4,062 nucleotides of DNA from a virus (lineage: Duplodnaviria > Heunggongvirae > Uroviricota > Caudoviricetes). The DNA lies in IMG/VR virus record IMGVR_UViG_2675903654_000014, positions 1-4,062 of that record. The stretch is one strand, 5' to 3'. The notes beneath the pieces were generated by a model. That model was not told where the DNA came from. It saw only the letters and a program-made list of their open reading frames with translations, and did no database searches. The first letter of the stretch is position 1. The number at the start of each line of letters is the position of its first letter. A program made the position numbers and the translations under genes. Below, piece by piece: positions 1 to 4,062 of the stretch.

Positions 1-227
1 GGGAAGGCTGGGCCATACTCCTCCGGCAGAAGCAGAAAAAGCTTATTATGCTTCCATCGGAAACGATGATCTGGCAGCCTGAGTTCACAGATAAAACACT
101 CTCCAGGAAACCCGGGGCGGTTCAAAACGCCCATGATTTTACAGGCTTTTGATACGTTGCTGAGTTCTTCAGCCAGATTGAGCAAACCGGCTTTGTGTTT
201 GATAACGGGATTGGTAGTATGAAGCAT
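1..227 (-). CDS. Partial CDS (start in window, runs off the left edge): putative DNA-binding protein with HTH-like N-terminus and a CxxC...Hx5H motif
   Basis: ATG at 227-225 on minus with GAGGT Shine-Dalgarno 8 nt upstream; frame open for 75 codons to position 1 with no stop. Translation begins MLHTTNPVIKHKAGLLNLAEELSNVSKACKIMGV, then ...GECFICELRLPDHRFRWKH. Absent from the ORF track because it is edge-truncated. Confidence 0.4.
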   Translation of the reverse strand, partial: MLHTTNPVIKHKAGLLNLAEELSNVSKACKIMGVLNRPGFPGECFICELRLPDHRFRWKHNKLFLLLPEEYGPAF

Positions 228-287
228 GAGAGTTACCTCGTGTTTTGTATAAGGATTCGACACCCATATCAAAACCGGTAACTCTCA
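227..287 (-). promoter_or_regulatory. Fold-back inverted repeat predicted to sequester the SD and AUG of the left HTH ORF
   Basis: Perfect 11-bp arms TGAGAGTTACC (227-237) and GGTAACTCTCA (277-287) separated by 39 nt. On the minus-strand RNA the downstream arm contains the last two G of the SD and the A of the AUG. Confidence 0.35.
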
Positions 288-350
288 ACCTTTCAAGGCT
301 CAGTGTCAGATCAAGTCGCGACTAATACACTCAATTCCATCATAAACTTC

Positions 351-479
351 TCAGTTGTTAGCTTTTGCCGAACTGGAAAGCGCCTGTTTAAACTCACTGA
401 AGCTGAGAGCTTCTTCGCCTTCGGCAAGGCCTTCGAAGTATTCTTCGTAAGCCTTTTTCATGATTGTGTCGAAATCCAT
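351..479 (-). CDS. Small hypothetical protein, 42 aa, acidic and probably helical
   Basis: ATG at 479-477 on minus with GGTGA SD 5 nt upstream; stop TGA at 353-351; lies 10 nt downstream of the 48-aa ORF stop. Translation MDFDTIMKKAYEEYFEGLAEGEEALSFSEFKQALSSSAKANN. The overlapping plus-strand track ORF 303..533 is F/L-rich with a GTG start and looks like its antisense shadow. Confidence 0.45.
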   Translation of the reverse strand: MDFDTIMKKAYEEYFEGLAEGEEALSFSEFKQALSSSAKANN

Positions 480-489
480 ATCACTCACC

Positions 490-636
490 TTAGTTTCTTT
501 CCAACCAGCGACGTGCGCCAGCTTCGGTTTTAAACGATTTGCTTTTGGTATACGTCATGGCGGTGAATGTGCCGTCCTGATTGGGAAACACGCCACATAC
601 CAGAGATTCGTTGTTGCCAAGATCGATAGTATCCAT
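490..636 (-). CDS. Small hypothetical protein, 48 aa
   Basis: ATG at 636-634 on minus with GAGG SD 5 nt upstream; stop TAA at 492-490. Translation MDTIDLGNNESLVCGVFPNQDGTFTAMTYTKSKSFKTEAGARRWLERN. The track extends this frame to a TTG at 699 that has no SD; the internal ATG is preferred. Position next to the repressor resembles the tiny ydaG/ydaF-type ORFs of Rac-like prophages (size and position only). Confidence 0.45.
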   Translation of the reverse strand: MDTIDLGNNESLVCGVFPNQDGTFTAMTYTKSKSFKTEAGARRWLERN

Positions 637-816
637 GTTGACCTCATTTCCCCTTAACGCCGGGTGGCGGAACGTTTTATCTACTGCGCTTTGTATCAAT
701 CAACAACTGCCGTCATGTTCGTATGCCTCAGGCTGGCTACTTAGCCCTGTTCAGTGGCTGGATAACTCGAGGTATTGTCCAGCCGTTCTCTGGTGGGGCG
801 TTGTTTGGATATGCTT

Positions 817-845
817 ATTAAACACAATGCGTTTTCTTATGTCAA
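817..845 (-). promoter_or_regulatory. Leftward sigma70-type promoter (PL-like): TTGACA, 17-bp spacer, TTTAAT
   Basis: On the minus strand, perfect -35 TTGACA (plus 840-845) and -10 TTTAAT (plus 817-822) with a 17-bp spacer. It lies just downstream of the repressor terminator and is oriented toward the small ORFs. Confidence 0.5.
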
Positions 846-858
846 CACGAAATGTGTT
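844..858. promoter_or_regulatory. Candidate operator (OL-like) 15-bp palindrome AACACGAAATGTGTT overlapping the -35 of the leftward promoter
   Basis: Inverted half-sites AACAC / GTGTT; related to the two palindromes in the repressor-cro intergenic region (1373-1387, 1419-1433). Confidence 0.4.
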
Positions 859-885
859 TTGTGGTGAGTGTCATATGATGATGGT

Positions 886-911
886 ACAAAAAAGCCCGCT
901 GATAGCGGGCT
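886..911 (-). terminator. Rho-independent terminator for the repressor gene
   Basis: 8-bp GC-rich stem AGCCCGCT (893-900) / AGCGGGCT (904-911) with a 3-nt loop, followed on the minus strand by UUUUUGU (plus A-run 888-892). It is 30 nt downstream of the repressor stop and is not a terminator in the plus orientation. Confidence 0.55.
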
Positions 912-941
912 GATTGGCATATTACTGTGATAGCAAGATCA

Positions 942-1361
942 TTACTCCGGTGGGGGATTATCTTTAAGCCTGCCTCTCAAATATTTTTCTACATACTCAT
1001 CGATTTCTTTTAGCCGGACTTCAAATAGCTCAATCATTCGTTGTTGTTCTGAGCCAGGTAGCTGGTTAAACAACTCAAGAAGTTTTCGTTGGGATTCATT
1101 TAACCACAATTCAGAAGATTCCTGTTCTCCAAATAGGAGCTCAGGAGGAGATATGCCAAGTGCCTTTCCCAATACGACAGCGTCATGCACTCCAACATTT
1201 CTGCTGCCCGCCTCATAGTTACCTATACGCGATTGCGTCCATCCGCAGATTTCAGCAAGTTTTCCTTGAGATAAACCAAGCTTCTGCCTGCGCTCTTTAA
1301 GACGCATTGCAATTTTGTCATTGAGCCTACTAGCGGCAATTTTTTCGTTTTCTTTTTCCAT
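942..1361 (-). CDS. Prophage repressor, XRE-family HTH (CI/RacR-like), 139 aa, no S24 peptidase domain
   Basis: Track ORF with ATG at 1361 and AAGGA SD 4 nt upstream. HTH segment LGLSQGKLAEICGWTQSRIGNYEAG; C-terminal part is helical and charged with no Ser/Lys peptidase motif. Divergent from a Cro-like gene, as in lambdoid immunity regions. Confidence 0.85.
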   Translation of the reverse strand: MEKENEKIAASRLNDKIAMRLKERRQKLGLSQGKLAEICGWTQSRIGNYEAGSRNVGVHDAVVLGKALGISPPELLFGEQESSELWLNESQRKLLELFNQLPGSEQQRMIELFEVRLKEIDEYVEKYLRGRLKDNPPPE

Positions 1362-1372
1362 TGCATCCTTGT

Positions 1373-1387
1373 ATCACGAATCGTGAT
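1373..1387. promoter_or_regulatory. Candidate operator: perfect 15-bp palindrome ATCACGAaTCGTGAT in the repressor 5' leader
   Basis: 7-bp perfect arms around one central base; lies 2 nt upstream of the repressor SD on its mRNA. Confidence 0.4.
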
Positions 1388-1408
1388 TTACATAAAACAC
1401 AAAACAGC

Positions 1409-1439
1409 TTGACCATATAACACAAGGTGTGTTTAAAAT
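1409..1439 (+). promoter_or_regulatory. Rightward promoter (PR-like) for the cro-like operon
   Basis: -35 TTGACC (1409-1414), then -10 TTTAAA (1432-1437, 17-bp spacer) or TAAAAT (1434-1439, 19-bp spacer); followed by GGAGG SD (1447-1451) and ATG at 1458. Confidence 0.45.
1419..1433. promoter_or_regulatory. Candidate operator (OR-like) 15-bp palindrome AACACAaggTGTGTT overlapping the PR spacer and -10
   Basis: Perfect 6-bp arms AACACA / TGTGTT with a 3-nt centre; same half-site family as 844-858. Confidence 0.4.
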
Positions 1440-1457
1440 TGTCATCGGAGGTTTTCA

Positions 1458-1700
1458 ATGAACAAAATTTCAACATATCGAAAACAGCTTGGGCTGTCTC
1501 AAAGACAACTTGCTGTTCAGTTAGGGTGGATACAAAGCCGACTGGCAAATTACGAAGCAAATTTTCGTACCCCTGGACTAGAGGAGTGCAGAAAAATTGT
1601 TTCTACCCTTAATCGGCTTGGCGCTCATTGTGGACTTGACGATGTATTCCCCCCAGACGGTAAGCATAGCGAAAACAGCATAGGAGCGGTTGATTCATGA
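1458..1700 (+). CDS. Cro-like XRE-family HTH regulator, 80 aa
   Basis: Track ORF with ATG at 1458 and GGAGG SD 6 nt upstream. HTH LGLSQRQLAVQLGWIQSRLANYEAN is about 60 percent identical to the repressor HTH over 30 residues. First gene of the rightward operon; its stop overlaps the next start (ATGA). Confidence 0.8.
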   Translation: MNKISTYRKQLGLSQRQLAVQLGWIQSRLANYEANFRTPGLEECRKIVSTLNRLGAHCGLDDVFPPDGKHSENSIGAVDS

Positions 1701-1707
1701 AAATCAG
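1690..1707. promoter_or_regulatory. Inverted repeat TTGATT-N6-AATCAg spanning the cro stop / ydaT-like start
   Basis: TTGATT (1690-1695), 6-nt spacer, AATCAG (1702-1707); 11 of 12 positions palindromic. Confidence 0.4.
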
Positions 1708-2119
1708 GCATGAGCACATCGAATCAGTGTTGTTAGCCCTGGCAGCCGAAAAAGGGCAGGCGTGGGTCGCTAACGCAATTACTGAAGAATATCTGCGCCA
1801 GGGGGGCGGCGAATTGCCCCTGGTACCAGGCAAGGACTGGAATAATCAGCAGAACATCTATCACCGTTGGTTAAAAGGTGAAACGAAAGCGCAAAGGGAA
1901 AAAATTCAGAAACTGATCCCTGCGGTTCTGGCAATTCTTCCGCGCGAGCTGCGTCACCGACTCTGCATCTTCGATACCCTGGAACGCCGTGCATTACTGG
2001 CGGCGCAGGAAGCGTTGAGTACGGCAATTGATGCGCATGATGATGCAGTCCAGGCCGTTTACCGGAAAGCACATTTCAGCGGTGGTGGGTCGCCCGGCGA
2101 TTCTGTCGTAGTGCATTGA
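1697..2119 (+). CDS. ydaT: YdaT-like protein (CII-functional-analogue / putative toxin family of Rac-type prophages), 140 aa
   Basis: Track ORF; ATG at 1697 overlaps the cro-like stop (ATGA). Translation MKIRHEHIESVLLALAAEKGQAWVANAITEEYLRQGGGELPLV... matches my recollection of YdaT in sequence and length (140 aa). Position after cro equals that of lambda cII. Confidence 0.75.
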   Translation: MKIRHEHIESVLLALAAEKGQAWVANAITEEYLRQGGGELPLVPGKDWNNQQNIYHRWLKGETKAQREKIQKLIPAVLAILPRELRHRLCIFDTLERRALLAAQEALSTAIDAHDDAVQAVYRKAHFSGGGSPGDSVVVH

Positions 2120-2133
2120 TTGAAATTAATCGT
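2116..2133. promoter_or_regulatory. Inverted repeat TTGATT-N6-AATCgt overlapping the ydaT-like stop codon
   Basis: TTGATT (2116-2121), 6-nt spacer, AATCGT (2128-2133); 10 of 12 positions palindromic; same half-site as 1690-1707. Confidence 0.35.
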
Positions 2134-2164
2134 GCCGGATTGTTTTGTTCGGTATCAGTTAAAT

Positions 2165-2183
2165 GTAACGCTGCGAGCGTTAC
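2165..2183. repeat. 19-bp dyad repeat copy 1, GTAACGCTgcgAGCGTTAC, just upstream of the initiator SD
   Basis: Perfect 8-bp arms; the AAGGTGA SD follows immediately and the ATG is at 2197. Confidence 0.6.
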
Positions 2184-2196
2184 AAGGTGAAAACAA

Positions 2197-2979
2197 ATGG
2201 CTTCAAACTGGATAAAGCTCGAGGTTATTACGCCGGATAAGCCGGAAATATTCAGGCTTGCTGAGATTCTGAATATTGATCCAGATGCCGCATTAGGGAA
2301 GGTTATTCGCTTCTGGGCATGGGCGGATCAACAAATGATAGACGGTAATGCAGATTGTAACGCTCGCGGCGTTACAAAAAGTGCAATAGATCGCATCACT
2401 TTTATGGCTGGTTTTGCTGATGCGTTAATTCAGGTTGGATGGCTGATCGAAAATGACGGTGGGCTTTCTCTACCTAACTTTGAACGTCATAACGGGAAAA
2501 GCTCTAAAAAACGGGCGGTTACAAACGAGCGAGTAACAAAAATACGCGAACTGCAACGAAAAGGTAACGCTGCCAGCGTTACACAAACGGATCAAAAAGC
2601 GTTACCAGAGGAAGAGGAAGATATAAATACTGATCTCCCCCTAAATCCCCCTCGCCAAAAACGAGCGTCTAAAAAATTCGAGCCGGAGGCTATCGAGCTG
2701 CCTGACTGGTTGCCGGAAACACTCTGGCATGAGTGGTTTCAGTTCAGGCAGGCATTGCGAAAACCGATTCGAACGGAGCAGGGCGCTAACGGGGCGATAC
2801 GGGAACTGGAAAAATTCCGTCAGCAGGGTTTTACACCTGAGCAGGTGATTCGACACAGCATCGCCAATGAATACCAGGGCTTGTTCGCACCGAAAGGTGT
2901 TCGGCCTGAGACGTTGCTCCGACAGGTTAACACCGTCTCGTTGCCGGACAGTGCGATCCCGCCAGGCTTCAGGGGGTAA
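2197..2979 (+). CDS. Replication initiation protein, YdaU / DUF1376-like (lambda O functional analogue), 260 aa
   Basis: Track ORF with ATG at 2197 and AAGGTGA SD. Sits immediately upstream of a DnaC-like gene, the usual initiator / helicase-loader pairing. Contains internal dyad repeats. Family assignment is from memory of DUF1376-type prophage proteins and was not searched. Confidence 0.75.
   Translation: MASNWIKLEVITPDKPEIFRLAEILNIDPDAALGKVIRFWAWADQQMIDGNADCNARGVTKSAIDRITFMAGFADALIQVGWLIENDGGLSLPNFERHNGKSSKKRAVTNERVTKIRELQRKGNAASVTQTDQKALPEEEEDINTDLPLNPPRQKRASKKFEPEAIELPDWLPETLWHEWFQFRQALRKPIRTEQGANGAIRELEKFRQQGFTPEQVIRHSIANEYQGLFAPKGVRPETLLRQVNTVSLPDSAIPPGFRG
2357..2375. repeat. 19-bp dyad repeat copy 2, GTAACGCtcgcgGCGTTAC, inside the initiator CDS
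   Basis: Perfect 7-bp arms; encodes the peptide CNARGVT. Confidence 0.6.
2518..2537. repeat. Degenerate, inverted-order relative of the dyad repeat (GTTAC-N10-GTAAC)
   Basis: GTTAC (2518-2522) and GTAAC (2533-2537); encodes AVTNERVT. An isolated half-site AGCGTTAC is at 2598-2605. Confidence 0.35.
2564..2582. repeat. 19-bp dyad repeat copy 3, GTAACGCTGcCAGCGTTAC, inside the initiator CDS
   Basis: Perfect 9-bp arms around one central base; encodes GNAASVT. Confidence 0.6.
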
Positions 2980-2985
2980 TGGACC

Positions 2986-3710
2986 ATGAAAAATATTGCG
3001 ACAGGCGGTGTTCTTGAACGTATCCGTAAGCTGGCTCCGCAGCATGTAACCGCGCCGTACCGGACTGTGGACGAGTGGCGAGAGTGGCAGCTTGCAGAAG
3101 GGCGAAAACGTAGCGAGGAGATCAACCGCCTGAATCGTCAGTTGCGGGTGGAAAAAATTCTGAATCGCTCAGGCATCCAGCCGTTGCATCGTAAATGCTC
3201 GTTTGCAAATTACCAGGTGCAGAACGACGGCCAGCGATACGCGTTNNNNNNNTGATGACCGGGGGTACAAATTTTGCGTTCAGCGGAAAACCTGGTACCG
3301 GGAAGAACCACTTAGCGGCAGCTATCGGAAATCGCCTGCTGAAAGATGGCCAGACAGTGATTGTGGTTACTGTGGCTGATGTTATGAGTGCCCTGCATGC
3401 CAGCTATGACGACGGACAGTCAGGCGAAAAATTTTTGCGGGAACTGTGCGAAGTGGATCTGCTGGTTCTTGATGAGATTGGCATTCAGCGCGAGACGAAA
3501 AACGAGCAGGTGGTACTGCACCAGATTATTGATCGACGGACAGCGTCGATGCGTAGCGTGGGAATGCTGACAAATCTGAACTATGAGGCCATGAAAACAT
3601 TGCTCGGTGAGCGGATTATGGATCGCATGACCATGAACAGCGGACGCTGGGTGAATTTTAACTGGGAGAGCTGGCGTCCGAATGTCGTCCAGCCAGGAAT
3701 TGCGAAGTAA
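2986..3710 (+). CDS. DnaC-like replicative helicase loader (AAA+ ATPase; YdaV-like), interrupted by a 7-N gap
   Basis: N-terminal part [20 protein letters not shown]...[26 protein letters not shown] and C-terminal part ...[20 protein letters not shown]...[10 protein letters not shown]...[22 protein letters not shown] align by eye with E. coli DnaC (Walker A GKPGTGK, Walker B LLVLDE). ATG at 2986 with GGGGG SD; stop TAA at 3708-3710. The two halves sit in different frames across the N-run at 3246-3252. Confidence 0.8.
3246..3252. other. Run of 7 ambiguous bases (assembly gap or masked sequence) inside the DnaC-like gene
   Basis: nnnnnnn in the sequence; flanking coding frames differ, and by alignment to DnaC about 11 residues are missing. 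Confidence 0.9.
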
Positions 3711-3732
3711 TTTTTACCGGGAGAAAAATTTA

Positions 3733-4062
3733 ATGGAGACTGTTTTTGACGCACTGAAAGCAATGGGAAAAGCCACATCCATAGAACTTGCTGCGCGACT
3801 TGATATCAGTCGTGAAGAGGTACTGAACGAGCTGTGGGAACTGAAAAAAGCTGGTTTTGTTGATAAAACCGCGTACACCTGGCGCGTGGCTGAAAACAAC
3901 GTTCAGCAGGAACAGTCAGCGCAGGCAGAACTGCCGGAAGAAACCACCACAGCAACAGTAGCGAAAATCTCAGAGTGCGATTTAACCGCAACGATTGAAC
4001 AACGCGGACCACAAACGGCTGATGAGCTGGCTACATTGTTTGATACCACATCACGCAAAGTG
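3733..4062 (+). CDS. Partial CDS (5' end; runs off the right edge): hypothetical protein with two winged-helix-like segments
   Basis: ATG at 3733 with GGGAG SD 9 nt upstream; frame open for 110 codons to the window end. Translation [56 protein letters not shown]...[29 protein letters not shown]. Absent from the ORF track because it is edge-truncated. Confidence 0.55.

Follow-up and report, generated by a model that had tools for sequence, protein, structure and literature searches.

Results

The region encodes a repressor, a Cro-like protein and YdaT

The window is a 4,062-nucleotide stretch of a Caudoviricetes record in IMG/VR (IMGVR_UViG_2675903654_000014, positions 1 to 4,062). From the sequence, the analysis establishes which genes and domains are present, gives the operator and box motifs and their statistics, and shows cross-phage conservation and mosaic boundaries. 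Three intact ORFs make up the region under study: a leftward repressor gene and a rightward pair that encodes a Cro-like protein and YdaT (Table 1). The same three CDSs are annotated by PGAP in NZ_CP148401, a genome 99.8% identical to the window, so these are real genes and not chance ORFs. The functional unit extends left beyond the repressor gene to about position 817, taking in the repressor terminator, two further operators and a promoter that points left. An Rfam search produced no match at the gathering score.

The matching prophage in NZ_CP148401 (99.8% identity) is located at ttcA and carries intR, xisR, ralR and recT. The cassette also occurs, with an intact kil/recE left arm, in strain ML35. 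At 95% identity or more it was found in 153 of 5,426 complete E. coli genomes of diverse serotypes, with ydaT in every case; these carriers (about 3% of the total) include O157:H7, O145, O111 and O55:H7 strains. The prophage in the closest genome is defective and has IS1203 insertions and head-gene deletions, and part of the circuit may therefore be vestigial. Overall, the region is probably the lysis/lysogeny control of a Rac-family prophage that is common in E. coli, and its known parts are put together in a new but ordinary way.

Table 1. Genes and predicted regulatory features of the switch, in window coordinates
Feature	Position	Strand	Description
PL-like promoter	817–845	-	-35 TTGACA (845–840), 17-nt spacer, -10 TTTAAT (822–817); consensus match only
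Operator OL2 (predicted)	821–835	.	AACACAATGCGTTTT; 1 mismatch to AACAC-N5-GTGTT; overlaps PL-like -10 and spacer
Operator OL1 (predicted)	844–858	.	AACACGAAATGTGTT; perfect palindrome; overlaps PL-like -35
Intrinsic terminator of repressor gene	886–911	-	AGCCCGCT-ATC-AGCGGGCT then TTTTTT
Repressor	942–1361	-	139 aa; HTH_3 about 14–80, linker, DicA-type two-helix C-terminal domain about 89–134
Repressor C-terminal domain motif			LLELFNQLPGSEQ; within about residues 89–134
Operator OR3 (predicted)	1373–1387	.	ATCACGAATCGTGAT; perfect palindrome, symmetric variant half-site; adjoins repressor RBS
Weak operator OR2 (inferred)	1396–1410	.	AACACAAAACAGCTT; good left half-site only; overlaps PR-like -35
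PR-like promoter	1409–1437	+	TTGACC, 17 nt, TTTAAA (alternative TAAAAT 1434–1439); consensus match only
Operator OR1 (predicted)	1419–1433	.	AACACAAGGTGTGTT; perfect; between PR-like -35 and -10
Cro-like HTH_3 protein	1458–1700	+	80 aa; HTH_3 match 39 bits (Pfam)
Speculative reverse promoter inside cro	1472–1500	-	GAGACA, 17 nt, TATGTT; weak consensus match
Speculative PRE-like reverse promoter	1677–1703	-	TTTTCA, 15 nt, TATGCT; -35 inside YdaT box
YdaT box	1690–1707	.	TTGATTCATGAAAATCAG = TTGATT-CATGAA-AATCAG; 1 mismatch to TTGATT-N6-AATCAA
ydaT	1697–2119	+	140 aa; CII-analogue transcription factor by homology

The repressor is a short protein of the DicA type

A Pfam search of the repressor returned HTH_3/HTH_31 alone (residues 18–80). 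Peptidase_S24 was absent even at E ≤ 10, and mEp213 CI, the positive control in the same search, scored 88.6 bits. With 139 residues and an HTH_3 domain only, the protein has the make-up of the short repressors (about 130–160 aa, N-terminal HTH, no S24 domain or cleavage motif). A preliminary description had proposed that the repressor lacks an autocleavage domain and that RecA-stimulated self-cleavage is thereby excluded as the induction route. Both statements are borne out: the S24 peptidase is missing, and derepression therefore cannot go via RecA-stimulated autocleavage.

The HTH domain is 58% identical to that of the S24-bearing mEp213 CI. The repressor ends about 75 residues earlier than that protein, and its C terminus aligns with DicA instead. 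BLASTP aligned both domains with DicA (29% identity over 129 residues, E 2e-15), and the motif LLELFNxLPxSEQ is common to the two C termini (C-terminal helix pair LLxLFxxLPxSE). The score against the curated DicA subfamily model NCBIfam NF007257 was 57.2 bits, below the cutoff of 101. Judged by sequence, the protein is a homologue of DicA and not its orthologue: a short repressor of the DicA type whose HTH and operators follow the mEp213 pattern. No homology to RacR was found by BLASTP (E 2.0), and a profile search of PDB sequences gave no match to the C-terminal domain below E 0.1. The AlphaFold single-sequence model of the repressor had a mean pLDDT of 64, with values of 56–65 in the C-terminal domain.

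The Cro-like protein shares 54–55% identity with the Cro proteins of mEp213, mEpX1 and VT1-Sakai and is unrelated to DicC. It gave no BLASTP alignment with YdaS and no match to Pfam YdaS_toxin (PF15943), against which the K-12 YdaS control scores 107.7 bits.

Repeated palindromes overlap two candidate promoters

The palindrome AACAC-N5-GTGTT occurs nine times when up to two mismatches are allowed, against 1.78 expected, and nine sites were reached in none of 200 shuffles. Five predicted operators were assigned, three in the 96-bp divergent region and two just past the terminator of the repressor gene, with a centre-to-centre spacing of 23 bp for OL2–OL1, OR3–OR2 and OR2–OR1. The motif, the spacing and a 3+2 or 3+3 placement in the divergent region and just past the repressor gene are also present in Chris1 and mEp213. 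OR3 is conserved in pPE4, Chris1 and mEp213, and a good site is present in mEp213 where OR2 lies here.

The -35 TTGAC and -10 TTTAA of the PR-like promoter are conserved in Chris1 and mEp213. The PL-like candidate has the same design and precedes a DUF1391/YdfB-like left operon; Chris1 and mEp213 have operators at the equivalent position. On the minus strand of 1362–1457, no convincing -10/-35 pair was detected for a PRM-like maintenance promoter. The predicted arrangement, with repeated palindromes over divergent promoters and a second set at the leftward promoter, appears to be that of a lambda-like tripartite operator switch.

YdaT and its box form a conserved module

The product of the third gene matched Pfam PF06254 YdaT_toxin with 43.3 bits, above the curated cutoff of 21, and PHROG 163 "CII-like transcriptional activator" with E 1.5e-36. 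It is identical to K-12 Rac YdaT at 133 of 140 positions (95%), which confirms its earlier placement in the YdaT family. Homology to YdaT proteins of solved structure extends over the full length of the protein (residues 1–140; PDB: 3c4r, E 2.5e-7; PDB: 8bt1, E 1.7e-6), and the DNA-contact residues H56, R57 and W58 and the tetramerisation-helix residues L107 and A110 are all conserved. The preliminary description left open whether YdaT is a toxin, a CII-like regulator or both, and published work, including studies of 2021–2025, has largely settled the matter. As a tetramer, YdaT binds DNA and acts as a transcription factor that switches on the repressor gene; it is no bona fide TA toxin, and the toxicity of K-12 YdaT overexpression involves activation of host rcsA (PMC8630535, PMC9986795, PMC11879457, PMC5917428). 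In K-12 the YdaT box was footprinted and the reverse promoter that feeds racR was activated 29-fold (PMC11879457); in CP-933P the equivalent box was also footprinted (PMC9986795) and PRE is activated by YdaT (PMC8630535, PMC9986795). By homology to these K-12 and CP-933P proteins (PMC11879457, PMC8630535), the YdaT studied here would bind DNA and activate leftward transcription of the repressor gene.

The YdaT box contains both the stop codon of cro and the start codon of ydaT, and it is where the conserved ydaT module begins on its left side. It is kept in 80 of 80 related IMG/VR loci representing six unrelated cro contexts, and homology among these contexts starts exactly at the box. The gene upstream of ydaT copies with at least 98% identity belongs to six unrelated sequence types and at least four Pfam families. 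The ATGA overlap noted earlier is present (cro stop TGA 1698–1700, ydaT ATG 1697–1699), but its reading as a sign of a coupled regulator/effector pair does not hold; the overlap results from the conserved YdaT box TTGATTCATGA, which occupies the mosaic junction. Because the box sits where homology among the cro contexts begins, we regard the overlap as a by-product of the box sequence. It is 4 nt here, whereas other cro types have a 17-nt overlap with ydaT or a 22-nt gap, and translational coupling as a designed feature was rejected because of this variation.

A YdaT-dependent leftward promoter could not be located among two weak candidates, neither of which is conserved across the cro contexts. 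The match at 1500–1472 is 190 bp from the YdaT box, the same distance as K-12 PracR4, but this weak match is treated as a possible coincidence, to which a rough estimate gives a low probability. The -10 of the 1703–1677 candidate is not conserved in other cro contexts. Additional YdaT sites in the divergent region were discounted, as 3-mismatch matches were not above chance (7 versus 2.8 expected), and a 2-mismatch site at the ydaT stop (2116–2133) was set aside because it is missing from K-12.

Search for an inducer

Short repressors of the DicA/Gifsy type are relieved by antirepressors (Gifsy, PMC3121763; DicA/Rem, PMC10448788). The preliminary description had called for an antirepressor or another signal; antirepressors are on record for repressors of this class, but none could be assigned to the 139-aa repressor. 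A search of the 44-kb prophage locus for perfect matches to the LexA-box core CTGT-N8-ACAG found none and so gave no support for LexA control. No local ORF had BLASTP similarity to Rem. This includes the syntenic 70-aa ORF beside hok (L001 28522–28734) and the ORF6N "anti-repressor" (L001 30520–31101), neither of which is supported by this search as a Rem-type antirepressor. The only signal is a weak match to PHROG 340, the Rem family, in the C terminus of the ORF6N protein (E 8.8e-5). Its gene follows a Q-like gene and a terminator in the late region and therefore looks late-expressed and not like an obvious inducer. Nor was a GfoA-type antirepressor identified.

Discussion

These data make it likely that a Rac-family lambdoid prophage at ttcA uses this region as its immunity switch, in the manner of lambda CI/Cro/CII. 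In this model, in which we infer binding, promoter use, the direction of the YdaT effect and the induction route, the 139-aa repressor would occupy the AACAC-N5-GTGTT operators over the PR-like and PL-like promoters as an oligomer. The PR-like promoter would drive cro-ydaT and the replication genes and the PL-like promoter the DUF1391/YdfB-like left operon, so that repressor binding would silence both the rightward and the early-left transcripts. The Cro-like protein, of the mEp213 Cro family, may compete for the operators of the repressor. Tetrameric YdaT, as a CII analogue, would bind the TTGATT-N6-AATCAG box that covers the start codon of ydaT itself and would stimulate leftward transcription, antisense to cro, into the repressor gene, favouring the establishment or restoration of repression. 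Derepression would most probably occur through a small antirepressor, as in Gifsy and DicA/Rem, or by stochastic switching.

The names given to YdaT (Pfam YdaT_toxin, PGAP "toxin YdaT family protein") suggest instead an addiction module of the toxin-antitoxin or "toxin-repressor" kind, with YdaT, alone or with the Cro-like protein, as a dedicated toxin that an essential repressor keeps silent. RacR depletion in K-12 is indeed lethal through expression of ydaS/ydaT (PMC5700373, PMC5700377), and expression of K-12 YdaT, 95% identical to the protein studied here, causes filamentation and death (PMC11879457). However, structural work describes YdaT as an HTH/POU protein that forms tetramers and binds DNA at a defined operator (PMC9986795, PMC11879457), YdaT of CP-933P is non-toxic and YdaS/YdaT do not form a TA pair (PMC8630535), and the genetic context favours Cro and CII roles (PMC5917428). 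The absence of a fixed partner upstream of nearly identical ydaT genes is unexpected for a cognate antitoxin, and the Cro-like protein does not match YdaS_toxin. We consider a dedicated toxin quite improbable. Direct inactivation of the repressor by RecA-stimulated autocleavage, as in a classical SOS switch of the lambda CI type, is extremely improbable: although the HTH domain and the Cro partner are closest to the S24-bearing LexA-family CI systems of mEp213, mEpX1 and VT1-Sakai, the repressor has no peptidase domain and ends in a DicA-like C terminus, and Gifsy repressors of the short class stay uncleaved when the prophage is induced (PMC3121763).

The condition of the prophage bears on whether the switch works at all. 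In the closest genome IS1203 lies 3' of the left operon, recE is truncated, an HTH pseudogene is truncated and the terminase gene is followed directly by tail fragments; in ML35 the portal gene is truncated too. These lesions would be expected if the ORFs and motifs were a non-functional remnant, not yet decayed, in a decaying cryptic prophage. We think this unlikely, as the three ORFs are intact and the cassette is conserved across the 153 carrier genomes, the operators, promoters, terminator and YdaT box are intact at the sequence level, and activity has been demonstrated for the equivalent cryptic switches of Rac, Qin and CP-933P (PMC11879457, PMC10448788, PMC8630535). An immunity switch of the CI/Cro/CII kind remains our preferred reading.

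The presence of ydaT and its box behind at least six unrelated cro genes raises a more tentative idea, which we hold as possible but doubtful: ydaT and the 18-bp box may be a portable lysogeny-establishment cassette bounded on the left by its operator and, in parallel, the DicA-type C-terminal domain may be a common receiver of one antirepressor. If so, YdaT would raise repressor synthesis independently of the neighbouring cro sequence, possibly from a promoter in or beside the box or by tetramer-mediated looping to the divergent region. A common receiver in otherwise heteroimmune Rac-family repressors would make cross-induction of heteroimmune prophages possible. The S24 and DicA-type C-terminal domains on one HTH/operator chassis, in mEp213 and this prophage, are a matched pair for induction mode, and the clean modular boundaries suit designed swaps on the choice that prophages make between SOS and antirepressor induction. 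The same boundaries help annotation, in which "toxin YdaT" is better read as a CII-like regulator. No established principle is overturned; a third repressor/Cro specificity, predicted from sequence, is added to the experimentally studied YdaT-type switches of Rac K-12 and CP-933P.

Comparison with known systems

The racR-ydaS-ydaT module of Rac in K-12 (Wons et al., 2025, PMC11879457; Krishnamurthi, 2017; Bindal, 2017) has the same integration site, prophage family and gene order: a short repressor, a divergent cro-type gene, ydaT, ydaU, ydaV and ydaW. The Rac layout claimed in the preliminary description stands for the order short repressor/cro/ydaT but not for homology to RacR and YdaS; ydaT alone is common to Rac, with 95% identity and the same YdaT box over the ydaT ATG. 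RacR and YdaS are unrelated in sequence to the repressor and Cro-like protein described here, and operators and immunity specificity therefore differ from those of Rac K-12. Other differences are the box half-sites (TTGATT..AATCAG here, ATGATT..AATCAA in Rac K-12), the 4-nt cro/ydaT overlap in place of a 22-nt gap and the replacement of the N-terminal half of YdaU.

The paaR2/ydaS/ydaT system of CP-933P in E. coli O157:H7 (Jurenas, 2021, PMC8630535; Prolic-Kalinsek, 2023, PMC9986795; PDB: 8bt1) likewise combines YdaT as a CII analogue with analogues of Cro and of CI, the latter lacking a peptidase. The site TTGATT-N6-AATCAA lies where its cro-type gene and ydaT adjoin, and the system shows bistable switching. 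Its YdaT is a full-length homologue, yet with only about 30–35% identity; its repressor is of a different family and is followed by the paaA2-parE2 toxin-antitoxin pair, which is missing here.

Repressors of the DicA/Gifsy type, which are controlled by antirepressors (Lemire, 2011, PMC3121763; Ragunathan, 2023, PMC10448788), share a length of about 135 aa, an N-terminal HTH, a short helical C-terminal domain with LLELFNxLPxSEQ and the lack of an Ala-Gly/S24 cleavage region. A further parallel with Qin (dicA-ydfA-ydfB) is the DUF1391-YdfB left operon behind the repressor gene, whose promoter is repressed there and predicted to be so here, but identity to DicA is only 29% and DicC is unrelated to the Cro-like protein.

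The predicted DNA recognition resembles that of mEp213 (also mEpX1 and VT1-Sakai), where the repressor HTH is 58% and Cro 55% identical, the operators have the same half-sites (AACAC/ATCAC-N5-GTGTT/GTGAT) at 22–24 bp spacing in the divergent region and beyond the repressor gene, and the PR -35/-10 layout is the same. The CI of mEp213 carries an S24 domain, in place of which the present repressor has a DicA-type C-terminal domain, and where mEp213 uses a lambda-type CII with a TTGC-N6-TTGC PRE, this prophage has YdaT.

A short repressor without an autocleavage domain

The 139-aa repressor matched HTH families over residues 18–80 and nothing else. Peptidase_S24 was not found in it even at E ≤ 10, and the control in the same run, mEp213 CI, scored 88.6 bits. 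This bears out the preliminary description, in which the repressor lacked an S24 autocleavage domain and its induction could not proceed by self-cleavage; that route is therefore excluded. No similarity was found between the repressor and RacR or between the Cro-like protein and YdaS or DicC, and the YdaS_toxin Pfam model did not match the Cro-like protein (K-12 YdaS, 107.7 bits).

By alignment, the repressor is evolutionarily a two-part chimera that joins an mEp213-CI-type HTH to a DicA-type C terminus. Over residues 12–80, identity is 58% with the HTH domain of mEp213 CI and 49% with the CI proteins of mEpX1 and VT1-Sakai, all three of which are S24-bearing, LexA-family repressors; the Cro proteins of these phages are 54–55% identical to the Cro-like protein. 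From about residue 85 on, the repressor aligns with Qin-prophage DicA (29% identity overall, E 2e-15), with which it shares an LLELFNxLPxSEQ helix. The NCBIfam DicA model scored 57 bits, below its cutoff of 101; the repressor is therefore homologous to DicA without being a DicA orthologue. Single-sequence AlphaFold predicted, at low confidence, two helices in the C-terminal part, one short and one long, behind a disordered linker, and no solved structure similar in sequence to this domain was found.

A variant cassette was seen in PP818812.1 (locus L004, 3176–3905) and in locus L010, with a Cro 100% identical to the window's, a repressor 60–62% identical, a divergent intergenic region and a recombination junction at the cro start. 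Matches confined to the cro part of the cassette were seen in about nine complete E. coli genomes, which probably carry this variant. PP818812.1, named "Actinobacillus phage vB_Apl-pPE4" in its record, has Rac-type recE, kil, ydaT and replication genes and about 95% DNA identity to the window over the 25% covered, in three pieces; its stated host may be wrong, or an E. coli prophage may have been in the sample.

Candidate operators and promoters

The repressor probably binds AACAC-N5-GTGTT candidate operators, assigned mainly because they are conserved across phages. Allowing ≤2 mismatches, 9 sites were found in the window against 1.78 expected, a count reached in 0 of 200 shuffles and one that takes in the three unrelated GTAACGC palindromes in ydaU. 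Counting the half-site, the three site centres in the divergent region lie exactly 23 bp apart, and the two left sites are also spaced 23 bp. OR1 sits between the −35 and −10 elements of the rightward promoter, and OL1 and OL2 overlap the leftward promoter, located just beyond the strong intrinsic terminator of the repressor gene. Citrobacter phage Chris1 shows the same motif, spacing and placement, as does mEp213, there with a full 3+3 set; the Chris1 repressor is 66% identical to the window's and likewise has a DicA-type C-terminal domain. No PRM-like maintenance promoter was identifiable by consensus.

The cro gene also contains a direct repeat (1474–1493, CATATCGAAAACAGCTTGGG; 1665–1684, CATAGCGAAAACAGCATAGG; 85% identical, 191 bp apart), which may be due to chance; AAAACAGCTTG recurs at 1401–1411 in the intergenic region.

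Features of the window, with candidate regulatory sites
Feature	Position	Strand	Remark
IS1203 copy, end	about 1–82
HTH pseudogene	126–227	minus	truncated
YdfB-like gene	351–479	minus
DUF1391 gene	490–636/699	minus
OL2	821–835		AACAC-N5-GTGTT, one mismatch
OL1	844–858		AACAC-N5-GTGTT, perfect
PL-like promoter	845–817	minus	TTGACA-17-TTTAAT
Terminator	911–893	minus
Repressor gene	942–1361	minus	139 aa
OR3	1373–1387		symmetric variant, ATCAC-N5-GTGAT
OR2	1396–1410		weak half-site
PR-like promoter	1409–1437	plus	−35 TTGACC, −10 TTTAAA
OR1	1419–1433		AACAC-N5-GTGTT, perfect
Cro-like gene	1458–1700	plus	80 aa
YdaT box	1690–1707		TTGATTCATGAAAATCAG
ydaT	1697–2119	plus	140 aa
GTAACGC palindromes	2164–2183, 2356–2375, 2564–2583
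ydaU-like gene	2197–2979		replication initiator
ydaV	2986–3710		DnaC-like; broken by masked N-run
DUF1627/ydaW-like gene	right end, after ydaV		start only

YdaT and the box at a mosaic junction

The 140-aa protein proved to be a YdaT family member, as proposed from the sequence: it scored 43.3 bits against Pfam YdaT_toxin (threshold 21), matched PHROG 163, "CII-like transcriptional activator" (E 1.5e-36), aligned over its whole length with both solved YdaT structures (3c4r and 8bt1), and is identical to K-12 Rac YdaT at 133 of 140 positions. H56 and R57, which mutagenesis of K-12 YdaT showed to be needed for DNA binding, and L107 and A110, likewise needed for tetramerisation (PMC11879457), are intact.

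Wons et al. reported that the K-12 YdaT footprint, ATGATTCATGAAAATCAA, covers the ydaT ATG and that a reverse promoter feeding racR needs this box to be activated, by up to 29-fold (PMC11879457). The site bound by CP-933P YdaT, TTGATT-N6-AATCAA, lies at the ydaS/ydaT border beside a PRE-like promoter that depends on YdaT (PMC8630535, PMC9986795). The window's box has one mismatch to the consensus. When the window, K-12 Rac and the phages vB_EcoS-666R9 and Rac-SA53 were aligned, four unrelated upstream sequences met exactly at its first base; between K-12 and the window, homology extends no further than the ydaT stop. Among 80 IMG/VR loci with ≥98%-identical YdaT, the upstream 260 bp formed six unrelated clusters (45, 16, 11, 7, 1 and 1, window counted), and the box was kept in 80/80, as TTGATT..AATCAG (71), GTGATT..AATCAG (7), ATGATT..AATCAA (1) or TTGATT..AATCAA (1). 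The six types of partner repressor are all 129–158 aa, HTH-only and without S24, five with the DicA-type C-terminal motif; their Cro partners fall into at least four Pfam families.

The overlap of the Cro stop and ydaT start as ATGA is present (1697–1700), but its reading as a coupled regulator/effector pair did not hold. Cro frames enter the shared box and end at the first in-frame stop codon, with a 4-nt ATGA overlap in two cro types (C terminus ..VDS*) and a 17-nt overlap in three (..IHENQA*); in K-12, a 22-nt gap separates the cro-type gene from ydaT. Because the frames stop at the box and the overlap differs among cro types, ATGA is a by-product of the box sequence, and a conserved coupling device was ruled out. 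ydaT has a Shine-Dalgarno of its own (AGGAG, 10 nt 5' of the start). A second box-like sequence (2116–2133, TTGATTGAAATTAATCGT, two mismatches) overlaps the ydaT stop codon and is missing in K-12 Rac, the sequences diverging there.

Prophage context and distribution

E. coli strain Z1323CEC0019 is 99.8% identical to the window over the full 4,062 bp. Its counterpart lies inside a lambdoid prophage assigned to the Rac family because it adjoins ttcA and carries intR, xisR, ralR and recT. An IS1203 insertion (window 1–227; 18869–20227 in the 44-kb prophage locus, L001) cuts the HTH gene short, leaving the pseudogene, and stands between the PL-like operon and recE/recT; kil and sieB, present in K-12 and ML35, are absent from the IS1203-bearing strain. 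A sub-threshold match to Rfam psRNA2 (RF02349; 230–388, plus strand; 37.2 bits against a gathering score of 65, E 1.1e-6) covers the whole model and sits between the HTH pseudogene and the YdfB-like gene. In ydaV, 7 N at 3246–3252 stand for 29 bases (AAGCCAGGCGAAATCCATCGCCGATGAAC in NZ_CP148401), so the gene is artificially split into two ORFs.

Residues 1–137 of the ydaU-like protein are unrelated to K-12 YdaU, and its C-terminal half is 80% identical. [quoted passage not shown]

The repressor-cro cassette (800–1700; ≥95% identity, ≥80% coverage) was present in 153 of 5,426 complete E. coli genomes. All copies were chromosomal, and all of these genomes but one had a single copy. ydaT followed it in 40/40 sampled rows, including O157:H7, O145, O111 and O55:H7 strains.

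Discussion

A lambda-like bistable switch is the best-supported model. The repressor would hold OR and OL, keeping the cro-ydaT-replication and left operons off; Cro would compete with it for the same sites; and YdaT, as a CII analogue on its box, would raise leftward transcription into the repressor gene. Two weak candidates for the YdaT-dependent leftward promoter, neither conserved, are 1703–1677, which overlaps the box, and 1500–1472, which lies 190 bp from the box, exactly as K-12 PracR4 does, and could be coincidence.

The preliminary description left YdaT as toxin, CII-like regulator or both; the CII role gained support and that of dedicated toxin did not. In K-12, RacR depletion is lethal via ydaS/ydaT expression (PMC5700373, PMC5700377). 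Jobling argued that YdaS and YdaT are Cro and CII analogues, harmful if overexpressed, rather than dedicated toxins (PMC5917428), and later work showed the same (PMC8630535). Activation of host rcsA is involved in the toxicity of K-12 YdaT (PMC11879457), and the window's YdaT, which shares its recognition helix, could plausibly affect the host in the same way. IS1203 interrupts the left arm in the closest genome, which lacks kil; in ML35 an identical repressor and Cro stand next to an intact kil/recE arm and a ydaU of the K-12 type. Given these differences, the harmful derepressed function would be strain-dependent.

The Gifsy short repressors have LexA-controlled antirepressors, GfoA and GftA, and Lemire et al. 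explicitly place DicA and RacR with these repressors (PMC3121763); Rem is the antirepressor of DicA (PMC10448788). No cognate antirepressor was found for the window's repressor: the 44-kb locus has no CTGT-N8-ACAG LexA-box core without mismatches, and BLASTP gave no Rem-like ORF. The only lead to a candidate is an ORF6N "anti-repressor" gene (L001 30520–31101; also 27691–28272 in locus L007; PHROG 2379, E 1e-90), the C-terminal 50 residues of its product weakly matching PHROG 340, the family containing Rem (E 8.8e-5). It appears to be late-expressed because it lies downstream of a Q-like DUF1133 gene and a terminator-like hairpin.

The repressor/Cro specificity of the window appears uncharacterised in searchable papers. 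The layout is recurrent, since isolated phages, among them mEp237, Chris1 and several Klebsiella phages, also pair YdaT-type CII genes with short DicA-like repressors, and the combination of short repressor, cro and YdaT is already characterised in two systems.
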